In this document: positions 5,925 to 24,747 of the stretch, piece after piece
How the letters are laid out: every line of letters starts with the position of its first letter
Position numbering within the stretch: the stretch's first letter is position 1
Assembly: GCA_038208905.1 (NCBI GenBank)
Contig: JBBQYG010000043.1
Location: forward strand, 1-27,283
DNA length: 27,283 bases
Reading direction: 5' to 3'
Source of the DNA: Candidatus Sumerlaeia bacterium
GTDB taxonomy: Bacteria; Sumerlaeota; Sumerlaeia; SLMS01
Translations under genes and position numbers: made by a program
Notes under the pieces: model-generated
Told to the model about the DNA's origin: nothing
What the model saw: the letters and a program-made list of their open reading frames with translations, nothing else
Database searches by the model: none

Positions 5925-6770
5925 CTATCGCGGCGAACCCTTGAAGAAGGAATAGACATCGCTCGCGGGCATGTCCTGGCGAAACGTCAGGACGCGATTG
6001 GTTCTATTGGGTTGAACCACCACCAGCGTCGGCACGCGCATCACGCCGAGGGCCTTCAGGACCTCGGCATTTTTCGGATCCTGGACATCGATGAAGTAGA
6101 TCGTCCGCGGGCCAAGAAGCGTCACCGCATCGGGATGCAGCAGGTAGCCGCGCTCAAAGGTCTTGCAGATATCTGTCGATTCCGAGCGCGCATAGATGAT
6201 GACGCTTCCCTTTTCCGCCAGTGTCTTCTGCGCGCCGAGCGGGCTGTAGGCCTGCCATTCGATGCGCGGGCGCGTTGGGGCGGGGGTCGCGCTTTTGGGA
6301 TCCGGCGTTGCGATCGGTTTCGCGGCCAGACTCCCCGCCATGCGCTCGGGCGGAAGCGGCCTGTCGGAGATGTTCTTGAGGTCTTCCACCTTGAGCTGCC
6401 AGCGCCCGCGATAGAGCTGCACTTCGCCGGTGGCGTACACATCGGTCCCGGGCTGTGAGAAGTTGGCGACTTCCAAGTTCTGGGGATTCCAGTAAACGAC
6501 CTCGAAAATCTTCGCTCCGCCATCGCTCAGCGTGATGATGTTGGGCGCGGTGTCCTTCCACGTTGGCTTGAAGTCGGCGACCTTCCCCTTCACCGACAGC
6601 AACTTGTCCTGCATCGAATGAATGACATCAAGTTGTTGAATCTCGTAGTAGCGGTTTTGATCAACGGACCCAGCGGTGGCGGGCGTGGGGGCCTGTGCTC
6701 TCCCCATGGCGAGCAACATTCCGATCAGAGTCATTGCGGCGAGGCACCGTCCAAGTTGCGGAAAACCCAT
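5925..6770 (-). CDS. Secreted protein with an OB-fold domain and a C-terminal thioredoxin-like domain
   Basis: Signal peptide MGFPQLGRCLAAMTLIGMLLAMGRAQA. OB-fold pattern VKGKV..ITLSDG..VVYW..VYATGEVQLYRGRWQLKV, a Pro linker, then Trx-like IIYARSESTDICKTFE..FIDV..LGVMRVPTLVVV. Confidence 0.7.
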   Translation of the reverse strand: MGFPQLGRCLAAMTLIGMLLAMGRAQAPTPATAGSVDQNRYYEIQQLDVIHSMQDKLLSVKGKVADFKPTWKDTAPNIITLSDGGAKIFEVVYWNPQNLEVANFSQPGTDVYATGEVQLYRGRWQLKVEDLKNISDRPLPPERMAGSLAAKPIATPDPKSATPAPTRPRIEWQAYSPLGAQKTLAEKGSVIIYARSESTDICKTFERGYLLHPDAVTLLGPRTIYFIDVQDPKNAEVLKALGVMRVPTLVVVQPNRTNRVLTFRQDMPASDVYSFFKGSPR

Positions 6771-6932
6771 CTGTCGATCTCCTTCGCGTATGCGGAAGAC
6801 CCAATGAACACGGGCACGCCGCCCGATCAAGTGAATAAGGAGTGACGAAAATGGGGATGGACAGATTGGAGCGCAGGGTGGTGATCGGAGGGATTCGGAG
6901 TGCGCACAAATAGAAAGCCCCCGCTCGCTGAA

Positions 6933-7472
6933 CTACGGGTCCACGCCCGTGCTTTCATTCTTAACATCGCCGACAGTGGCCTCGGCGGATTGCTTCTGAC
7001 CACGGAGGAATGCATATACAAGCGACGCGATCGTGCCGCCGCTGATGCATGTTCCAGATAGAGCCCCAGGCCATCCTCCGAGGGCGATAGCGAGAACGGC
7101 CGAAACAATCATGCCGAAGGCGGCTATCGTAATCGCGAATCGCTGTCCGCGCTTGTGAGCCTCGTGCTCTTTCTCGTTGTTCTGCCGGGCAATCGAGAGA
7201 ATTGCCTCCTGCTGGCTGGCGGCGATCTCCATGTCGCGCTTCTCCAGCGCTTGGCGATGCCTCGCCTGCTCCTCCGCCATCCTGAAAATCCTCTCGGCAG
7301 CGTCGGGGAGAACTTTGCCGTAAGCAGCTAGTATATCCGGTGGAGGAAGGGGGCCCGAAAACTCCGAGCGCTGAACGATTGTTTTCTGAGCAGGGATCAA
7401 TCCATGGCGATCCCCGCCCCGGGGCGACTCATCGCCGATCTTTCCTCGATTTCGTTGCTTACCGGACGACAT
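6933..7472 (-). CDS. DUF2335 family membrane protein
   Basis: FSGPLPPPDILAAYGKVLPDAAERIFRMAEEQARHRQALE is the DUF2335 signature, followed by a coiled coil, RGQ and two TM helices. ATG 7472 overlaps the upstream small gene. Confidence 0.85.
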   Translation of the reverse strand: MSSGKQRNRGKIGDESPRGGDRHGLIPAQKTIVQRSEFSGPLPPPDILAAYGKVLPDAAERIFRMAEEQARHRQALEKRDMEIAASQQEAILSIARQNNEKEHEAHKRGQRFAITIAAFGMIVSAVLAIALGGWPGALSGTCISGGTIASLVYAFLRGQKQSAEATVGDVKNESTGVDP

Positions 7473-7698
7473 CGTCTGGCGCTTTTGCCCGACGGATCTC
7501 CGCATCGAATTGGCCTGCGGCATCTTCGATATCCCGGCCAACAGCCCTCCAGTCGGACTCGAGCGCCTCGGCATCATTGCGCAGGAACTTGGGTCGATCA
7601 ATGGTGGGGATCGCGACCCTTACAGGTTGAGGAGAGAGAACCAGAGCGCTGCCGATTCCGGCCATCAGTGCGCTGTGCGAGCGACGCCGCGTGATCAT
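7459..7698 (-). CDS. Small hypothetical protein (79 aa), likely partner of the DUF2335 gene
   Basis: AAGGGG RBS-like sequence before ATG 7698, the motif DAEALESDWRAVGRDI, and a 14-nt overlap with the DUF2335 gene. Confidence 0.7.
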   Translation of the reverse strand: MITRRRSHSALMAGIGSALVLSPQPVRVAIPTIDRPKFLRNDAEALESDWRAVGRDIEDAAGQFDAEIRRAKAPDDVVR

Positions 7699-7737
7699 TT
7701 TTGAATCCCCCTTAGTGATTGCCGCCACCGCTCGCGC

Positions 7738-7765
7738 AGTATAAGGTTCCATATCCGCAGGTCAA
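7738..7765 (-). promoter_or_regulatory. Sigma70-type promoter for the small-protein/DUF2335 pair
   Basis: Minus strand reads TTGACC-16 nt-TATACT, about 40 bp upstream of ATG 7698. Confidence 0.65.
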
Positions 7766-7857
7766 CGCCCAACAGCTAATGTCACACTTTGCAAGGTTTC
7801 GGCCAGTCGATTCTCAGTCCCGACTTCACCTTTTCTTTGCCAGCGCTCCTGACCGCC

Positions 7858-10800
7858 TTACCCGCCCATCATCCCCGCGATCTTGCGGCGCGCCAGAAGT
7901 CCCAACCTGCGGCTGAACGCGCGGACGCGGTGCTCGGCGTTGCGGCCGATCAGGGGGGCTTCCGTGGTCATTCGCCAGTGGCTGGCACCGGCGATGCGGT
8001 CGAGGCCCGAATCCATGAGCGGGCAGGCGAGCACCGTGGAGGACGCGATCGCGCGGAACAGGCGGGCGGGCTCCAGAGGTATCCATTCCATCGAGAGCGG
8101 CGTGGCGCCGGGGAACTGGCGGAGAAGTTGCAGCAGCTTGCGGTGGTTCTCTGCGGGAATCTGGGAGAGATCGAGCGAGATGGATCCCACGCGGGCCGCG
8201 CGTTCCATCGCCTCGTCGAGGGGGACGAGGCTTTCGAGTTCGAGCTCCCACTGAAACGAATCGCGGGAAATCTTTCCCGTCAGCATCACGCGGCGCGCGC
8301 CGAGTTCCTCCGATGCCAGGCGCAGGCCCAGCTCTCCGCTCGCCCGCACCAGGACGCCGCCCACGTCGGCGATGACTGCGCCGGGACGCTCGCGGTCAAC
8401 TTCCGCGCCGGAGGGGACGCCATCGATGCACACAATGTGGCCGTCCATCTTCAGCGGCATGCGCGTGGGGTGCTGGACGCGGGCCTCGCGGAGGAAGTGG
8501 GAAATGGCGATGGGAGAGAAGTCCCCGATGACGACCCCGCAGGCCGATGCCTGCTCCGCGGCGAGGTCCAGCGGCTGGGTCGCGGCATCCTCGGGGCGTG
8601 CGTTCTCACGCAGCCACCATGCGCCGTCGCGGTCGAAGAAGGACAGTTCGTCCTCGGTGGGTGGCGCGCCGCCACGGCGCGCCTTCAGGATGGGGAAGAG
8701 TTCCTCAAGCTGCCCCGCGAGCTCCGCGCGCGTGGCGCCCAAATGGTCGAATGCCCCCGCGCGGAGGAGCAGGCGCAGGTGCGCGGGACGCAGGCGCGAC
8801 TTGTCGGTGCGATGACAGAGATCGGAGAGATTGCCGAACTGTAGCTCGCGCCGTTTCTCGGCGATTTCGGCGGCGGCGGCGGCGCTGAGACCGCGAATCG
8901 CGAGGAGGCCGGGGCGAATCGCGTCGCCCTCCACGCTCCAGCGCCACTGGGAAAAGTTGATGTCGATTTCCGCGATGCGGACGAGGCGCGAACGCATCTC
9001 CTCCAGCAGCGCCGCCGTGCGCCGCGAATCCCCCGCGGCCTGGCCCAGCGCGGCGGCCTGGAATGCCAGCGGGCGGTGAGCCTTGATGGCGGCGCACACG
9101 TGGCAGAGGAGGATCGAGGCGAAATCCGGGAGGTCGTCCCCGGCGATGTCGGGCCCTTCCTGCTTGAGAATCGCGATCAGCGAGTGCAGGTCGGCGGGCT
9201 GGCCCACGCGGAGGCGGCGGCGAATCGCCGGCGACTCAAGCGGCGGGATGCCGAGCGTGCGGCCCTCGCGAAGGAGCCGATAGGTTGCCGCGTCGTCGGG
9301 CGGGGTCTGGTCGGGGGAAAACGCGGAGTCGCCCTGCTGCCGGGCGAGTTCCGTGGATTCGCCGATCAAGTCCAGCAGCGGAGAATGCACATACGCCAGC
9401 CGCCCGTGACGCAGGCGGCCAAGCTCTTCCGATGTCCACTCCGAGAGAGCCACCAGCGGCGCGTCGTGGGCGTTGGAGACCAAGCGGCGCGGAACCATCG
9501 TCTCCATCGGCTCGACGGAGAATGTATAGACACCGGGCGCGGCGACGAGTTCGCGGGCGCGGCCTTCCATGCGGTGGACCAGCCACGCGAGCGCGGCATA
9601 GCTCTCGATGGGCTCGTCGGCGTCGGGTGTCCAGGTGGCGGGCTGGCTGGCGGCTTCCTCGCGGGCGCGCTGGAATGCGTCGCTGCGCGCGATGGAGGCG
9701 GCCCACTTGCCGTCGTGGCCCAGCAGCTCGGCGGCGCGCTCCAGGGCGTGCGATGTCTTCCACGGGCGCCACTCGCCCACGGCCAGGGCCTGCCCCTCGA
9801 AGAGGCGCTGCAGCGCGCCCACGGCGGCGGCCTCCTGGTTGGCGGGGATCGAGAGTTCCAGCAGCGGGAACGACCCCTTGCCCAGCCCCGCGGGGAGGGA
9901 GAACGGCAGGTCGAATTTCAGCGGGTCCAGCCGGGTCAGCCCCATCAGCGACGCGATCACCGAATTCGTGAACAGCCCGGCGCCGGGCCCGCGCTGCACG
10001 CCATCGTGCTCGAGTTCCTCATGGAGCCGGATCAGCGAGACGACCGCGTTGGCGAGGCCCGCCTCCACGATCTCCTGGAATTCGCGGTTGAGGCGTTCCT
10101 TGTAGCGTGTCGGCAGCTCGCCATAGCGATCCGTGGCGCGCGCGAATGAGGTGTTCCAGATGTAGGAGTCGGCATCGACGCCGCGGCCAAAGTTCCCTTG
10201 GGGGAAGCGGCGCTCCGGCTGGGGGAGCGCGAATCCCGCGCAGCGCTGGGCGATGGAGAGCGTGTTCTGAAGCGCGCCGGGAAAGGCGGCGAAGCGCTCT
10301 CCCGCGAGCGAGCGGGGGAGGAGGTGGCGGCGCTCGCCCACTGGGCGCATCAGGTCAACCAGGCGTGCGTCGGGGCCGCGGCCCGCGCTGGCGGAGCCGC
10401 TGAAGAACCGGAACACGGCGTCATCGGCGGCGTGGGCACAGGCGACTTCGGGAATGGCCACCGTTCCGAGGCCAAAGTGCGCCGCCACCACGTCGAGCAT
10501 CCGCGCCACGGGGGCGCCGTCGCCGACGGGATCGGGAAGCTCCAGATAAACGCGCTCGCGCCCGATCGACTCGGCAAGGGCGCCCAGCAGCGTTTCCAGC
10601 TTTTCGATCTCGCCGTCGCGGATGAGGCGCGTGATCTCGCCGCGCTCTCCGCCGAGGAGATAGACAAGGCCGCGGGGATCCTCGAAAAGGTCCGCAAAAG
10701 TCACATGGGGCGGGCGCGTGGGGGTTTCCGCCGAACGGCCGCGGTTGACCAGCTTGGCCAGGGTGCGCCAGCCGCGTTCGGACTCCACCAGCAGGCGCGC

Positions 10801-11064
10801 GCGATAGGTGGTGCCGCGATAGACGGCTTCGCCGCAGGGGAGTACCCCGATCTCGGCGCCGAAGAGAGGCCTCAACCCTGCCCGCGCCGCCGCTGCCGCA
10901 AAGGCCGGCGCGCGGCCCAGCGAGTTGACGTCGGTCAGCGCAAGGTAGCCTTGCTCGTCGCGCGCCGCCTCCCAGCAAAGCTCGTCCACCCGGGCGATGG
11001 ACTCGCCCAGGCTCAGTTCGCTGCGCGCGCCAAGATGAACAAAGGGGATGGGAGTTGCCGTCAC
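7858..11064 (-). CDS. dnaE: DNA polymerase III alpha subunit (DnaE) paralogue, divergent and predicted catalytically inactive
   Basis: Colinear with DnaE: PHP domain (FVHLGARSELS, ALTD, GAEI), YKERLNREFQEI, GLTRLDPLKFDLPF, KAHRP, HhH (GLLAIRGLS..AGAFD), an OB-like region and a C-terminal domain. Catalytic motifs are substituted (see findings). GTG start, no internal stops. Confidence 0.85.
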   Translation of the reverse strand: MTATPIPFVHLGARSELSLGESIARVDELCWEAARDEQGYLALTDVNSLGRAPAFAAAAARAGLRPLFGAEIGVLPCGEAVYRGTTYRARLLVESERGWRTLAKLVNRGRSAETPTRPPHVTFADLFEDPRGLVYLLGGERGEITRLIRDGEIEKLETLLGALAESIGRERVYLELPDPVGDGAPVARMLDVVAAHFGLGTVAIPEVACAHAADDAVFRFFSGSASAGRGPDARLVDLMRPVGERRHLLPRSLAGERFAAFPGALQNTLSIAQRCAGFALPQPERRFPQGNFGRGVDADSYIWNTSFARATDRYGELPTRYKERLNREFQEIVEAGLANAVVSLIRLHEELEHDGVQRGPGAGLFTNSVIASLMGLTRLDPLKFDLPFSLPAGLGKGSFPLLELSIPANQEAAAVGALQRLFEGQALAVGEWRPWKTSHALERAAELLGHDGKWAASIARSDAFQRAREEAASQPATWTPDADEPIESYAALAWLVHRMEGRARELVAAPGVYTFSVEPMETMVPRRLVSNAHDAPLVALSEWTSEELGRLRHGRLAYVHSPLLDLIGESTELARQQGDSAFSPDQTPPDDAATYRLLREGRTLGIPPLESPAIRRRLRVGQPADLHSLIAILKQEGPDIAGDDLPDFASILLCHVCAAIKAHRPLAFQAAALGQAAGDSRRTAALLEEMRSRLVRIAEIDINFSQWRWSVEGDAIRPGLLAIRGLSAAAAAEIAEKRRELQFGNLSDLCHRTDKSRLRPAHLRLLLRAGAFDHLGATRAELAGQLEELFPILKARRGGAPPTEDELSFFDRDGAWWLRENARPEDAATQPLDLAAEQASACGVVIGDFSPIAISHFLREARVQHPTRMPLKMDGHIVCIDGVPSGAEVDRERPGAVIADVGGVLVRASGELGLRLASEELGARRVMLTGKISRDSFQWELELESLVPLDEAMERAARVGSISLDLSQIPAENHRKLLQLLRQFPGATPLSMEWIPLEPARLFRAIASSTVLACPLMDSGLDRIAGASHWRMTTEAPLIGRNAEHRVRAFSRRLGLLARRKIAGMMGG

Positions 11065-11188
11065 GACCGCTCCGCCGCCGCGACCCCGCGGGGTGTGGAT
11101 GGCACTTTTCAGCGGTCATCCCTCCGAGGAGGGCACCATGTCAAGAAGGGGAAGCGGGGAAAAAAAAGAACGGTGGCAAGCGGGGGGA

Positions 11189-11686
11189 TCACGGCACGGC
11201 GGCGCCCTTTGTCTTTTCCACCCGGTACCGCCGGAAGGTTTCCTTCAGCAGTTCCGCGCAATCGGCCTCCAGCACCCCGGCCACAACCTCGACCTGGTGG
11301 TTGAATCGGCTGTTCTCCAGCAGGTTCAGGTCGGCACCACAGGCGCCCCAACGCGGATTGGCGGCGCCATAGACGAGGCGGGCGATACGGCCCTGTAGCA
11401 GAGCGCCCGCGCACATGGGGCAGGGCTCCAGCGTCACATAGAGCGTGGCGCCGTCCAGGCGCCAGTCGCCCTGGCGGGCGGCGGCCTCGCGGAGCGCCAG
11501 CACCTCGGCATGGGCCGTGGGATCGTCGAAGGTTTCCTTTCCATCGTGGGCGCCGCCCAGCAAGACGCCATCGCGCACGACGACGGCGCCGATGGGAACC
11601 TCTCCGCGAAGGGCGGAGAGGCGGGCCCAGCCCAAGGCCCGCCGCATCCAGTGGGCGTCCAGCTCCTCCGCTCCGGGCTGGCTCAC
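11189..11686 (-). CDS. tadA: tRNA adenosine(34) deaminase
   Basis: GEVPIGAVVV, DPTAHAEVLALR, WRL..ATLYVTLEPCPMCAGA and NHQVEV..GVLE..C motifs. The start overlaps the upstream stop (GTGA). Confidence 0.92.
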   Translation of the reverse strand: MSQPGAEELDAHWMRRALGWARLSALRGEVPIGAVVVRDGVLLGGAHDGKETFDDPTAHAEVLALREAAARQGDWRLDGATLYVTLEPCPMCAGALLQGRIARLVYGAANPRWGACGADLNLLENSRFNHQVEVVAGVLEADCAELLKETFRRYRVEKTKGAAVP

Positions 11687-13479
11687 AACGGCGGCTCGAT
11701 CCGGGCCACTGCGGACCGGGAAATGACCACGGCGCCGGAGCCCGTTGGCTCCAGAGTGATTGACGTGTCGGTGATCTCGGTCACGACGGCCTCCATCATC
11801 ATGCCCGATTTCAGGTACACCTTGCGCGTGATGGCCTCGGGAACAACGGCGCGTTCCTGGACCAGCGTGGGAACTGGGGTGGGTGTGGAAAACTTGAGCG
11901 GGCGGTTCTCAAGCGGATTGGTGACCACGACAGGGGTGGATTTAGTGCTGGGCGCCTCTGGCGGGGGGGGGTCCATGGGGCCAAACTGGCGGGATTCGCG
12001 CTCGCCCTTCAGAGGCTCGCCTGGGACGGGGCGACCCGAGGCGCCGGAGAATATCGTGTTGGGCAAGCTCGAATAAAACCCGCGCGAGGAGCCCCGGACC
12101 GGTTGTGCGTAGTGGCTGAGGATGGTTCCCAAGCCGCGCGAACGGGTGGTGCTAAACTGGTGGCTGAGGCCTTGAAGGAAGTTCTGGCCCCCGGAGACGG
12201 ATATCAGGCCGGCGGCGGGCCCCTTGTTTTTGTTCAGGAACGCCACCCACTCATCCAGAATATTGCCTTGGGCGCTGATTCGTTCGCTGATTTCAATGGT
12301 CAATTCATCAAGCCTGGAATCTTGACACCATGAAAGCCAGTCGGTCATGTGTCTGGAGTAGGACGGGGAATCGATCCACTGCTCCCAAGTGGCGGGCGGG
12401 GCTGCGCCACCGGTGCCGACCATCACCCCAACGCGGGTCCCGGGGCGGGCGCGCTGGATCGTGTCGCGGACGTCGCCGATTAGGTCCGACACGCGGGCGC
12501 GACGCCACGACGACCAGGTGGGATCGTCGGGAAGGGGGTTCCCCTGGCCGCCGACAACTCCGCGAAATCGGGAGACGGCCACGGGGCTGTAGCCCCATTC
12601 TGCCCCAGGATAGCCGACGCCGGTAAACAGATAGCCATCGGGTGCCAGCACGCTGTCGATTTCCTCCAGCACCCCCCTCAGATAGAAAACGGCGTCGGGA
12701 TTGCCCGGGTCCAGATGGATACGGTTGTCGGGGGCGACGATGGCGCCGGTGACGCTCTGGGCGATGAAGTCGGGCTGGTTTCCGAAGATATGGGTGGCGG
12801 CGGGCCGACTGCCCACGAGGGCGCTGTAGGAGGGTAGGAGCGAGACGACAGCGAAGATCTCGGTGCCGGGCGGGAGCGCGCGACGCAGTTCGGCGACAGG
12901 GTTGGGGAACGTGGGGTTGATGAACTGCATCGGCTTCTCGATGCGGGAGTCAAAGGCGACGCCAAAGGCCGTCCGTGCCTCGATATAGACGCGTGTGAAC
13001 CCGGCATCGCGGCAGTCCTTTGCCAGTTGCTGAATCTGCTCGACGGACTGAAAGCCGGCCTCGGTGGAAAGGACCATCAGGGCCTTGATCTCGCCCTGTG
13101 CGGCGGTGGGGGCGGTCGGCGGGGCGGTGGTGGGCGCGGCGGCGGGGATTGTGGCGGTATCGTCGAAAGGATTGGCCGGCTTGGCGGCCGGGAGGTCGAA
13201 GGGATTGGAGCCCTGGCCGGGGGCGGGCGTCGCGCTGAAGGGATCGGAGCCTGGGATCGGCGTGGGGACCGCCGTGGGCGGAAGGTCGAAGGGATTCTTG
13301 CCCGGTTCGGTCGATGGCGTGCCACCAAACGGATCGGTTTCCGGGGGCGGGGTAGCCGCGGGCTCCACAAAGGGATCAACGTCCTGTGACGGTGCCGAAG
13401 CAACGTGAAGCGGGAGGACGAGAAGCGCGGCGGCGGCCAGCCGAAGCCAACCGAAGCGGTGAGGTGCCCGTGATGCCAT
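11683..13479 (-). CDS. Secreted glycosyl hydrolase-like 10 (GHL10/DUF187) family protein with a Pro-rich N-terminal region and a small C-terminal beta domain
   Basis: Signal peptide and repeated [DN]PF motifs, then [52 protein letters not shown] and DWLSW, which match the GHL10 layout. Confidence 0.75.
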
Positions 13480-20985: not shown

Positions 20986-23900
20986 CTACGGCCGCTTCTG
21001 CACGTTCAACGCGTCGAAGATTTCATCCACGGACTGGAAGCGGTCCCCGGCGTTCTTGGCGACGCACTTCATGATGACGGCCTGGAGGGCCGGCGAGACG
21101 CGGTCGGGGAGCGGCGGCGGCGCGGTGTGGATATGGTGGTATTCGATGTTGCCGAGGTAGAAGGGCGGGTGGCCGCTGGTCAGCTCGTACATCATGATGC
21201 CCAGGGAGTAGATGTCGGTGCGGGCGTCAACGCCCTCGCCGGTGATCTGCTCGGGGGCCATGTAGAGCGGCGTGCCGATGATGGCTGTGCCGCTCTTGGT
21301 GGAATCGTCGCCCTTGAGGATCTTGGCGATGCCGAAATCGGTCACCTTCACGCTGTTCTGCTTGGTGATCATGATGTTGGCGGGCTTGATGTCGCGGTGG
21401 ATGATGTTTAGTTTGTGGGCATAGGCGAGGGCGTCGCAGATCTGGAGGAAGAAATAGACGAGCTGGTCCTCCTGAAAGGAGGTGCGCTCGGCGAGGACGC
21501 GCTTGAGGTCGGTGCCCTCGATGTACTCCATCGAGATGAAGCGCTTGGATCCGCTCTCGAACATGTCGTGGATGCGGACGATGTACGGGTGGCTGAGTTT
21601 CTTCGCCGCGCGGGCCTCGCGCTTGAAGCGCTCGACGGCGCCCGGGTCGGAGCACAGGTAATCGTTGAGCACCTTGAGGGCGACGACTTCCTCAAGCGTC
21701 TTGTCGCGGGCCTTGTAGATGATACCCATGGAGCCGCGGTTGATTTCCTCGATGATGACGAACCGGGGATCGGAGAGGATCGCGGCCTTGGAGTGGTCGG
21801 TTTCGTCCTGCTGCATCTTGATGCGATAGCGCAGCTTCTTGATCTTGGCGGCGATGTCGCGGTAGTCCTCGCCTTCGGCGGCCAGGTGCTCGTACACGGT
21901 GAGGGAGTTGTTGAGCTGGCCGGTGTTCTCCATGTCGGTGGCGAGGCGATAGAGGATGTCGCGGATTTCCTCGTTCTGCTTGAGCTGCTTGAATTTCTGC
22001 CAGGCGAGGAAGTGCAGGTTCTTCTGCCAGTGGCAAAGGCCAAGGATCTTGAGGGCGCGGGTCTCGTAGGCCTGACTGGTCTGGAGCTCCTGGAGGAGTT
22101 CGATGGCCTCGTCCACGCGGTTGGCCTTGAGGTAGATCTTCACGAGCTTGAAGCGGGCGCCCATGTCGGCGGACTTTGAGACGCGGATCTTGTACAGACG
22201 CTCGAGCTCGGCGCTGTCCTTGTCCGACGGGTCGAGCTTGGTGGCGGCATCGAGGTCGTCGCAGGCGCCCTCCAGGTCGCCGGCGGCTTCGCGCAGGGCG
22301 GAGCGGTCGCGGCGGAGCGAGGCTGGATCGGGGAGGTTGGCAAGCGCCATGTCGAAGAGGGAGGAGACGTCTTCCTTGCGCTTTGCGCCATAGTTGCCAA
22401 CGAGGATCTTGAGGGCGGCGCGGGCACGCTCCGACTCGCCCGAGGCGATGAGCAGCAGGGCGCGGGCGCGGAGGACCGGGAAGCGGCCATCGGTGAGCCA
22501 GGGCTCGGCGGAAAGCGCGGCGATGGCCTTGGCGTAGAGTTCCTTTGCGTCCTCGGAGGCGTCGTTGTCGGCGGCGTAGTCCAGAGCGGAATCCACGACG
22601 CCGGGCCAGTCAACGTCCTCGCCAAGATCGCCGAGGCCACGGAGGTCCACCTCCCTGGTTTCCGGCGACTCCATGTGCATCTCCTGTGTGTCGCTCTTGC
22701 TGGACTGCGACTCATAGGTGGAGGTGAAGTCGTCCCGGCGGGGGGGATCCGCGGGGGGCATCGGCGGGGTAGCCGCCTTGTGCATGTCGGTCTTGGGGTT
22801 GGTGACGCTTTCCGGCGGGATGGGACTGAGGCCGGACCCAGGCGATCCATAGCGCCGCGGGGAGGGAAGCGACCTTACGTCGCTGTCGGAGGGGCGGGGG
22901 ATGTGCTCCGTGGAGGGCTGCGGCTGGGGTGCCTTGTGGGCGAGGGGGACGACCTCCGAACTCTTGTGGCTCGCCGGGGAAACCGGCATTGTAGGCGCGT
23001 TGCCGGGGGTGGCGTCGCCGAGGACGGCGAAGTTGTCGGGGGTGCGGGGCCGTACGCTGGAATCGGCCTTGTTGCTCCTGACCGAGGAGGAGTCGTCCTT
23101 CTTGAGTTCCTGAGGCATTTGGCCCGGCGGCGAGGACAGCTTGCGACCGCCACCGGTTGGCGCGGGGGCGCCGCCCTTGGTGGTGGAGCGACCGCGGCGC
23201 GCGCGCGCCTTCTTGCGGGATTTCTTTTCCGCCTCGTCCAGCTCGCTGTGGACGATCTTCAGCGTCTTGGCAGCGCCGGAGGCGAGTTCCTCCGCGGAGA
23301 TTTCCATCACGCCGTCTGCGTTGACGAAGAAGGTGACGCGGATGCGCGCGGATCCCTTGGGGGCGGCGGGAATGTCGGCCAGCGTGAACTTGCCGAGGCT
23401 GCGGTTTTCGGAGGCCTCCGCGCTCTCGCCCTGGAGGATGTGAACGTTGACGAAGGTCTGCGCCTCCTCGGTGGTTGTGAAATTCTTGGCGGCCTTGATG
23501 GGGATGGTGGCATTCTTCTCGATGATGCGGGAGAATTTGCCGTCCTTGACCTCGATGCCGAGCGAGTGGGGCGACACGTCCAGGAGCGTGACCTCCTGAA
23601 TATTGCCGCTGAAGACGCCGGCCTGCGTCGCCGCGCCCAGGGCCACCACTTCGTCGGGGTTGATGCCCTTGAAGGGCTGGAGCCCGAAGAAGTCCTCCAC
23701 CGCGTCCTGGACGAGGGGGATGCGCGTGGATCCGCCGACGAGGATGACCTTGTCCACGTCCTTCTTGGAGATGTGGGCGTCCTCGATGGCGCGCTTGCAG
23801 CAGCGGATGGTGCGCGTCACGAAGCTGTCGATCAGTTCCTCGAACTCGGCGCGTGAAATTTGGCGCTCAAGGTGAAGCGGCTGGCTGTTGCGATAGGCGA

Positions 23901-24747
23901 TGAAGGGGAGCGTGATCATCGTGGAGGAGGTGGTGCTCAACTCGCACTTGGCCTTCTCGGCCACCTCTTTCAGGCGGCGAAGGGTCACGGGGTCCTTGGT
24001 CAGATCGACGCCATGCTGCTCCTCGAATTCCTCCACGATCAGGTGGACAATCACGTTGTCCAGATCGTCTCCGCCAAGCTGGGTGTCCCCGGTGGAGCAG
24101 AGTACCTCGAAGGTCTTGTCGGAAATTTCCAGAATCGTCACGTCGAAGGTGCCGCCGCCGAAGTCGTAAACGGCGATCACCTCGTCCTCGCTGGTGCTCT
24201 TGCCGATGCCATAGGCGAGGGCCGCGGCGGTGGGCTCGTTGAGGAGGCGCAGGACTTCCAGGCCGGCAAGGCGGGCGGCCTCCATCGTGGCGGTGCGCTG
24301 GCTGTCGTCGAAGTTGGCGGGCACGGTGATAACGGCTTGGCGGACTTCCTGGCCAAGGTAGGCTTCGGCGGATTCCTTGAGCTTCTTGAGGACGAGGGCG
24401 CTGATCTGCTCCGGGCTGTAGCCGAAGCCGTTGATGTCGATGAGGAGCTTGCCTTCGTGATCGACGATGTTGAAGGGGAGCTGGCCGCCGCGCTCCTCGG
24501 CCTGCTCGAAGTCCATTCCCATGATGCGCTTGATGCTGCTGATCGTGCGCAGGGGATTGGTGGCTGCCTGGCGCCGCGCAATCTCGCCGACGATGCACTC
24601 GTTGTCGTCCAGGAAGGCGACCACGCTGGGAGTCTTGTTGGAGCCTTCCTGGTTGGGGATCACGACCGGCTCGTCGCCCTCGATAATGGCGACGACGGAG
24701 TTTGTGGTCCCTAGGTCGATGCCGATGATGCGCGCGTCTTCGTGCAT
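20986..24747 (-). CDS. dnaK: Hsp70 (DnaK-like) / Pro-Ser-rich linker / TPR / Hanks-type Ser/Thr kinase fusion protein (a DnaK paralogue, not the canonical chaperone)
   Basis: Hsp70 motifs GIDLGTTNS, TPSVVAF, NEPTAAALAYG, VYDFGGGTFDVTIL, LGGDDLD, VILVGGSTRIP and LLDVSP with a beta substrate-binding subdomain. Kinase motifs VALK, HRDIKPANI, KVTDFGIAK, GTPLYMAPEQ and DIYSLG. One continuous 1253-aa ORF. Confidence 0.93.
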   Translation of the reverse strand: MHEDARIIGIDLGTTNSVVAIIEGDEPVVIPNQEGSNKTPSVVAFLDDNECIVGEIARRQAATNPLRTISSIKRIMGMDFEQAEERGGQLPFNIVDHEGKLLIDINGFGYSPEQISALVLKKLKESAEAYLGQEVRQAVITVPANFDDSQRTATMEAARLAGLEVLRLLNEPTAAALAYGIGKSTSEDEVIAVYDFGGGTFDVTILEISDKTFEVLCSTGDTQLGGDDLDNVIVHLIVEEFEEQHGVDLTKDPVTLRRLKEVAEKAKCELSTTSSTMITLPFIAYRNSQPLHLERQISRAEFEELIDSFVTRTIRCCKRAIEDAHISKKDVDKVILVGGSTRIPLVQDAVEDFFGLQPFKGINPDEVVALGAATQAGVFSGNIQEVTLLDVSPHSLGIEVKDGKFSRIIEKNATIPIKAAKNFTTTEEAQTFVNVHILQGESAEASENRSLGKFTLADIPAAPKGSARIRVTFFVNADGVMEISAEELASGAAKTLKIVHSELDEAEKKSRKKARARRGRSTTKGGAPAPTGGGRKLSSPPGQMPQELKKDDSSSVRSNKADSSVRPRTPDNFAVLGDATPGNAPTMPVSPASHKSSEVVPLAHKAPQPQPSTEHIPRPSDSDVRSLPSPRRYGSPGSGLSPIPPESVTNPKTDMHKAATPPMPPADPPRRDDFTSTYESQSSKSDTQEMHMESPETREVDLRGLGDLGEDVDWPGVVDSALDYAADNDASEDAKELYAKAIAALSAEPWLTDGRFPVLRARALLLIASGESERARAALKILVGNYGAKRKEDVSSLFDMALANLPDPASLRRDRSALREAAGDLEGACDDLDAATKLDPSDKDSAELERLYKIRVSKSADMGARFKLVKIYLKANRVDEAIELLQELQTSQAYETRALKILGLCHWQKNLHFLAWQKFKQLKQNEEIRDILYRLATDMENTGQLNNSLTVYEHLAAEGEDYRDIAAKIKKLRYRIKMQQDETDHSKAAILSDPRFVIIEEINRGSMGIIYKARDKTLEEVVALKVLNDYLCSDPGAVERFKREARAAKKLSHPYIVRIHDMFESGSKRFISMEYIEGTDLKRVLAERTSFQEDQLVYFFLQICDALAYAHKLNIIHRDIKPANIMITKQNSVKVTDFGIAKILKGDDSTKSGTAIIGTPLYMAPEQITGEGVDARTDIYSLGIMMYELTSGHPPFYLGNIEYHHIHTAPPPLPDRVSPALQAVIMKCVAKNAGDRFQSVDEIFDALNVQKRP

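Follow-up and report, generated by a model that had tools for sequence, protein, structure and literature searches.

A phylum-wide family of full-length DnaE paralogues in Candidatus Sumerlaeota with an apparently inactivated polymerase site

In eukaryotic Pol epsilon the polymerase module at the C terminus is inactive and forms an architectural part of the replisome, and the bacterial beta sliding clamp is bound by peptides with a consensus of approximately QL[SD]LF. Here we describe a 1068-residue paralogue of DNA polymerase III's alpha subunit (Pol III alpha, or DnaE) in which the polymerase site appears to have been lost; it is encoded in a 27,283-nucleotide contig of a Candidatus Sumerlaeia bacterium (GCA_038208905.1, JBBQYG010000043.1), the whole of which is called the window below. 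Inactivated polymerases have been described in other families: in their accessible text, two sources (PMC6511836, PMC12926913) present ImuB as a Y-family polymerase that has no catalytic activity, attaches to the beta clamp and acts as the scaffold of a mutasome, and one of them (PMC12926913) presents bacterial PolX1 as an inactivated polymerase site with an active PHP exonuclease. The accessible text of the latter, a 2026 survey, mentions inactive members only in the Y, X and B families and, at the domain level, for PHP or DnaQ, and defines four C-family groups after strongly diverged sequences had been discarded before tree building. Another survey (PMC3919608), in the part available, gives D401, D403 and D555 as absolutely conserved in the C family and had sequences without an intact active site removed. 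No published description of an inactive C-family polymerase was found in the accessible text of the literature searched, and the literature on Sumerlaeota together with 'DNA polymerase III' yielded no papers. Among the cases found in this literature search, the family described here is the first phylum-wide, full-length dead C-family polymerase that we could find.

The gene occupies positions 7858..11064 of the window on the minus strand, as do all parts of it given below, with a GTG start at 11064, a stop codon at 7858-7860 and no internal stops. The first-pass annotation, made from the sequence alone, had described an uninterrupted open reading frame (ORF) colinear with Pol III alpha, and the ORF itself, the order of Pfam domains and the phmmer alignments bear this out. 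Pfam placed PHP at residues 10-177, DNA_pol3_alpha at 304-536 (a weak match of 42.6 bits), the finger domain at 564-632 and HHH_6 at 695-782, which is the canonical order of Pol III alpha; all four exceeded their gathering scores, and the finger profile was matched at positions 2-70 of 166 only. Searched against PDB sequences, the paralogue aligned to the alpha subunits of E. coli (5fku, E 9e-34), Taq and M. tuberculosis. The best NCBIfam match, to the DnaE1 model NF004226, scored 232.4 bits against a cut-off of 1002, and the DnaE2 model NF004225 scored 149.8 bits against 939, both below threshold.

We then compared the motifs of the polymerase site with those of E. coli alpha (5fku), of the canonical DnaE encoded in the same genome and of further canonical DnaEs, using alignments of 29 family members with 13 canonical DnaEs and of 20 class-wide members with 8 canonical DnaEs. 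The nucleotide-binding loop GPGRGS reads GPGAGL (residues 359-364; 9973..9990), as had been claimed, so that its Arg and Ser are gone. The PD[FI]DxDF motif reads PLLELSI (residues 400-406; 9847..9867), with D401 replaced by L, D403 by E and D405 by S, and K[FM]DFLG reads RLAYVHS (residues 555-561; 9382..9402), where D555 corresponds to A557 in the MAFFT alignment or to R555 in the phmmer alignment. Since there is no Asp or Glu between E547 and D565, the loss of the third Asp is robust to alignment shifts. The claim that all three catalytic Asp had been lost thus stands in that none of the positions (L401, E403, A557/R555) holds Asp, with the correction that the second is still acidic; in the sequence alignment this Glu is the only acidic residue at a catalytic site, and it is not conserved across the family, being present in most members of the paralogue's order and replaced by Gln, Thr, Arg or Ile in other members. 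The reported deletion of the fingers segment with RPGP, YQEQ and GFNKSH was also found: the RPGP-to-GFNKSH interval has 13 residues in the paralogue versus 114-118 in 10 canonical DnaEs, and the junction (residues 635-651; 9112..9162) stands in for about E. coli 637-765 by phmmer, the alignments and superposition of the predicted model. About 105-130 residues, which carry dNTP-binding motifs, are lost in this region. An active C-family polymerase has both the Asp triad and complete fingers, and the paralogue has neither.

The same losses recur in its relatives. A profile search of 1.84 billion representative proteins gave, among the best 150 rows, 54 family rows picked by eye, each with a match unbroken across the fingers junction or being a fragment of such a protein. 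All 54 were without the triad, having no more than one Asp among the four positions (D401, D403, D405, D555), and had 9-26 residues at the fingers segment. The columns come from a fast MAFFT alignment, in which divergent rows may be shifted by one or two residues; each of the 10 canonical rows in it had DDDD and 114-118 fingers residues. The PHP-like domain (residues 1-280; 10225..11064), which was recognized by Pfam and superposes on the PHP domain of E. coli alpha (4gx8) with a VIA-align Z of 29, has HGEVERGEA at the metal-ligand positions versus HHDHEHCDH. Three of the nine ligands (H, E, E) are left, a state common to the paralogue's whole order, and the complete HHDHEH[C/H]DH set of a PHP exonuclease site is absent from the window protein. 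The earlier statement that these ligands were mostly gone therefore held, except that HxH retains its first His (HLG where GAR had been given). Basal members have near-full sets of 7-8 of 9 (HHDHEHCNH in G034 and G025, HHDHERGDH in G036, and HHNHEHCNH in G041, a genome of a different class). As read from these alignments, the family has lost the catalytic aspartates, the Arg and Ser of the GRGS loop and the dNTP-binding part of the fingers, and this lineage has lost six of the nine PHP ligands as well. All members lack the polymerase site and the basal ones keep most PHP ligands, which most simply suggests that polymerase death came first and PHP loss later; the family ancestor was probably a polymerase-dead protein whose PHP nuclease site may still have worked, this site being lost later in the window lineage.

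A canonical dnaE was expected elsewhere in the genome (4.24 Mb, 301 contigs, 94% complete), and one is present on contig C269 with PDIDIDF, KMDFLG, full fingers and 9/9 PHP ligands. The triad, fingers and nine ligands were intact in all eight Sumerlaeota DnaE1 proteins checked. No match to the RNase_T/DnaQ family (PF00929) was found in this 94% complete genome, which, together with the intact PHP site of DnaE1, suggests that proofreading is presumably PHP-based. The paralogue itself is widespread. A word-indexed protein search gave 28 full-length relatives at 39-58% identity, the next matches being canonical DnaEs at approximately 25%; the named relatives were titled 'PHP domain-containing protein' and came from Candidatus Sumerlaeia/Sumerlaeota. 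A search of 41 related genomes found intact full-length paralogues down to 25% identity, always with a canonical DnaE of approximately 1160-1200 aa. With a family profile run over 75 genomes of the phylum, the paralogue was found in 70: 67 had single-stretch matches of more than 600 bits (including G041), and 3 further genomes (G056, G017, G051) had contig-broken or split copies. It was not found by this profile in G009 (75% complete), G035 (82%), G061 (66%), G071 and G074, and in G035 a C-terminal fragment did appear in the 41-genome search. One stop codon lies inside the match in 6 of the 67 single-stretch cases; the match in G018 was stop-free in the 41-genome search, suggesting that some, at least, of these stops are match ends overrunning the stop codon. 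When 185,579 species genomes were scanned with three family-specific peptides, 19 loci were recovered, 17 labeled Candidatus Sumerlaeota/Sumerlaeia and 2 labeled 'bacterium'. The paralogue belongs to a distinct family of full-length DnaE paralogues that extends through Candidatus Sumerlaeota.

Next, we estimated selection on congeneric genome pairs by the Nei-Gojobori method (NG86), setting the paralogue beside the canonical DnaE of the same pair. The dN/dS values of the paralogue and DnaE1 were 0.185 and 0.177 in pair g20 (dS approximately 0.15, the cleanest pair), 0.108 and 0.096 in g3, and 0.426 and 0.282 in g13, which is saturating; in g17, where the paralogue alone was computed, the value was 0.093. 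Orthologues thus give a range of 0.09-0.43 that matches canonical DnaE in the same pairs. Near-identical contigs of three other studies differed from the gene at 19 strain single-nucleotide polymorphisms (SNPs), 13 synonymous and 6 non-synonymous, with no indels listed. Together the dN/dS values and the SNP pattern indicate that the paralogue is constrained about as strongly as the replicase; it is intact and under purifying selection matching that on the genome's own DnaE1. The proposal in the first-pass annotation of selection for a non-catalytic role is supported by these results, and the nature of that role is what we infer below. The marks of a pseudo-polymerase, namely a polymerase fold, loss of catalytic residues and purifying selection, are found together in this protein. 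Separately, one contig of run X2 (depth 7, identical elsewhere) skips 59 bases within window positions 10914-10974, with 3 other letters between; such a skip would shift the frame near codons 31-50, and may be an assembly artefact or a minority variant.

Phylogenetic placement kept the family apart from both DnaE1 and DnaE2-like sequences. In a quick IQ-TREE reconstruction (LG+G4, unrooted, 58 rows, no PolC outgroup), the 23 family rows formed one clade (SH-aLRT 100) separated by a branch of 0.66 from all 35 catalytically intact DnaEs; given this long branch and the lack of an outgroup, the donor DnaE lineage is not assignable. Seven of the eight Sumerlaeota DnaE1 proteins fell in one starred clade among other DnaE1, and the eighth (G074) fell beside that clade. 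A third DnaE copy occurs in some Sumerlaeota (L087 in G034, L088 in G039, L089 in G069 and L090 in G027, the last being a 1362-aa protein with an N-terminal extension). Against the DnaE1 model these copies stayed under the cut-off, at 619-795 bits, and they formed a separate clade together with a Phycisphaerae sequence; with triad and fingers intact in 4/4 and a degenerate PHP, they are likely DnaE2-like. DnaE2/ImuC, the error-prone polymerase of ImuA-ImuB-DnaE2 modules, resembles the paralogue in that it is an additional DnaE without a replicative role whose PHP site is degenerate. Unlike the paralogue it keeps the triad and fingers, and the paralogue falls well short of the DnaE2 model. As the first-pass annotation had remarked, imuA and imuB are absent, with none among the window ORFs scanned with Pfam and none conserved across 21 orthologue loci; the same holds for a Y-family partner gene.

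AlphaFold2, run with a 63-sequence family alignment, gave a confident model of the paralogue (pLDDT 90.6, pTM 0.87), whose best Foldseek matches, extending over 1100-1230 columns with TM 0.52-0.57 and E values as low as 1e-49, were the alpha subunits of Taq, M. tuberculosis and E. coli. VIA-align superposed the model on Pol III alpha at Z 35.2 for 2hpi (rmsd 10.3, 782 aligned) and Z 35.1 for 2hnh (rmsd 7.4, 746 aligned), and model residues 3-794 covered E. coli residues 1-910, which is the fingers deletion in three dimensions. The protein therefore has what marks a C-family member, the PHP, Pol3 core and (HhH)2 in a Pol III alpha fold, and it shares with DnaE1 (E. coli 2hnh/5fku, T. aquaticus 2hpi/3e0d and M. 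tuberculosis 7pu7; Z 31-35) the order PHP-palm-thumb-fingers-(HhH)2-clamp motif-OB-C-terminal region. It differs from DnaE1 in its missing triad, altered GRGS loop, deleted fingers and eroded PHP site, in its separate clade and in co-existing with a normal DnaE1. The (HhH)2 or beta-binding domain (residues 695-782; 8719..8982) gave the best-scoring Pfam match (HHH_6, 72.5 bits) and lies largely within one of the most conserved stretches of the family, which are residues 1-60, 271-330, 361-390, 601-630 and 661-780. An OB-fold domain was assigned from the model at residues ~859-950 (8215..8490), with a Z of ~10 to the OB folds of MCM and AspRS. Residues 951-1068 (7861..8214) form a C-terminal alpha/beta domain with an Arg-rich terminal helix in the model; they are colinear with the C-terminal region of alpha, and phmmer gave a weak stretch matching residues 924-990 to E. 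coli 1046-1115.

The sole long low-confidence stretch of the model is a linker at residues 802-810 (pLDDT <50), and it contains ELSFF (residues 806-810; 8635..8649), a peptide like the clamp-binding motif, placed where canonical DnaEs have their internal Q-x-S-L-F. Its position in a linker that is predicted to be disordered is as expected of a docking peptide, and from sequence and model ELSFF would qualify as a clamp client, that is, a QL[SD]LF-like peptide in an accessible flexible segment. F810 is shared by 55 of 63 family members and [FL]809 by 58, and basal members carry QLQLFD, QNSLFD and QMTLFN, which are of the QLxLF type. We also predicted the complex of residues 1-372 of the genome's own DnaN (23-row alignment) with residues 650-835 of the paralogue, alongside three controls. 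The pair scored 0.32 (runs of 0.32, 0.00 and 0.37; best of the three controls 0.00), with at least 15% contact agreement between runs and a partner pLDDT of at least 62. The mark that we applied had been reached by 58/80 solved complexes and 2/110 mismatched pairs, and it was reached at a score of 0.60 or below by only 7/80 solved complexes and by both mismatches. The result was graded as weak support. Since alpha-beta complexes have already been solved, a passing prediction may also reflect likeness to them. As for the replicase of this organism's own family, the clamp motif of canonical DnaE1 is without a leading Gln (TEDLF, EADFF; G000 C269 and G002 L048), and in other Sumerlaeota DnaE1 it reads Q-x-x-[LM]-F.

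Taken with the fold, these features lead us to favor, by some distance short of certainty, the explanation that the paralogue is derived from Pol III alpha and binds the clamp and DNA without catalysis. Such a protein would be unable to polymerise or proofread; it would use the internal peptide ELSFF, still present in the flexible linker, to dock on the beta sliding clamp, with DNA held by the retained (HhH)2 and OB domains. As an accessory with a structural or regulatory part in replication or repair, it could act at primer-template junctions and on clamp-loaded DNA, following an ImuB-like logic. ImuB and the paralogue are both polymerase paralogues that have lost their catalytic residues, kept a clamp-binding motif and remained under selection; they differ in that ImuB is a Y-family protein of unrelated fold in a conserved operon with its partners, and the paralogue is a C-family protein with no conserved neighbors. 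Several observations weigh against this explanation. The clamp motif in the paralogue's clade has no leading Gln (DELSFF), the DnaN prediction was weak with one of three runs scoring 0, and DnaE1 keeps its own clamp motif, which makes the paralogue dispensable for tethering DnaE1. No conserved neighbor points to replication or repair: a tblastn search of 11 window neighbors against 19 orthologue loci gave a single weak match, and when all ORFs of at least 90 aa within 8 kb on either side were clustered across 21 loci, no cluster was present in more than five except the paralogue and its shadow ORFs. There is also no SOS-type signal at the paralogue. The genome has lexA (C67), whose short upstream palindromes had nothing in common with those upstream of the paralogue, and when 7500-11800 was scanned for promoters and terminators, none was found upstream of the paralogue. 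Finally, the highest conservation surrounds the dead active site (271-330 and 361-390), which a pure scaffold does not need, and a ligand or partner could still be bound there.

This last point, together with the missing replication or repair neighbors and the marginal DnaN result, would fit a scaffold recruited for a role unrelated to the clamp or DNA, binding another protein or a small ligand at the former active site as a regulator or sensor; conservation peaks there and not in the clamp linker or the OB domain. We regard this as possible, though clearly the less probable account, because HhH is the best-preserved Pfam domain, a clamp-type peptide stands at the homologous site in 55/63 members with canonical QLxLF in basal ones, and the palm is the most conserved part of working DnaEs too, so that conservation around the dead site may be structural. 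The near-full PHP sets of basal members, in which triad and fingers are already gone, would fit a PHP nuclease or phosphoesterase, acting as a trans-acting proofreader or repair exonuclease with the polymerase body being no more than its means of access to clamp-bound DNA ends. A precedent in the accessible text of PMC12926913 is bacterial PolX, whose polymerase is inactive and whose PHP is active; it parallels those basal members, although PolX1 has an X-family fold and, unlike PolX1, the window protein has a degenerate PHP as well. With the 3/9 ligands of the whole order as degenerate as in the non-catalytic E. coli-type PHP, and a complete PHP site already available in the genome's DnaE1, such an activity is improbable for the window protein.

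Still harder to credit is a nucleotidyl transferase with a non-canonical active site, for example one using Glu403 and other residues. The confidently predicted palm and the Glu shared by most members of the order speak for it, but of the three metal ligands two are either hydrophobic or missing, other family members have other residues in place of Glu403, the Arg and Ser of the GRGS loop are lost, and the dNTP-binding fingers residues are gone in all 54 representatives. A decaying pseudogene or a chance ORF had to be considered, as GC-rich DNA contains many long spurious ORFs and the NCBIfam scores are far under the DnaE cut-offs. Its probability is negligible: it is refuted by the occurrence in 70/75 genomes, by dN/dS values well below 1 and equal to those of DnaE1 and by the strain SNPs, and the intact orthologues throughout the phylum and the confident fold prediction also stand against it. 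A bolder explanation, which we hold to be doubtful, places the paralogue at the core of the Sumerlaeota replisome as a non-catalytic and possibly essential subunit, 'alpha-prime', that would occupy a clamp or clamp-loader arm next to the active DnaE1 and organise or regulate the fork. If true, it would correspond in bacteria to the inactive polymerase lobe that eukaryotic Pol epsilon carries, and the textbook rule that every C-family member is an active polymerase would fail for a whole phylum; the Pol epsilon module, however, belongs to the B family, is fused to an active half and is eukaryotic, so the likeness to the paralogue is an analogy only.

Dead polymerase paralogues are already known in the Y, B and X families, and a C-family case would be new to them. 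A dead DnaE that is strongly selected throughout a phylum implies that selection can act on some function of the Pol III alpha scaffold other than catalysis, and the paralogue may serve as a natural separation-of-function variant for the interactions of alpha with the clamp, DNA and partners. It also bears on annotation: family members are labeled 'DNA polymerase III subunit alpha' or 'PHP domain-containing protein' in databases, and counting them as polymerases inflates the inventories of uncultured phyla.

Around the gene, two ORFs lie directly downstream on the minus strand, one for a DUF2335 membrane protein (6933-7601) and one for a 301-aa OB-fold protein of the tRNA_anti-codon type (5925-6830). 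The patch 5925-7601 has a GC content of 0.60 versus approximately 0.67, neither gene is found beside orthologues of the paralogue, and the patch may be an inserted segment. Just upstream on the same strand (11189-13479) lies a gene for a tRNA adenosine deaminase of the tadA type (11189-11686), which shares 4 bases with the next ORF (11683-13479); the latter encodes a 598-aa secreted, Pro/Thr-rich, GHL10 glycosyl-hydrolase-like protein; the adjacency of these two genes to the paralogue is not conserved at orthologue loci. Elsewhere in the window, a minus-strand ORF at 20986-24747 (1253 aa) has an unusual chaperone-kinase architecture, in which an Hsp70/DnaK-type ATPase (residues 7-509, 631 bits) is followed by TPR repeats (~800-910) and a Ser/Thr protein kinase (998-1238, 197 bits).

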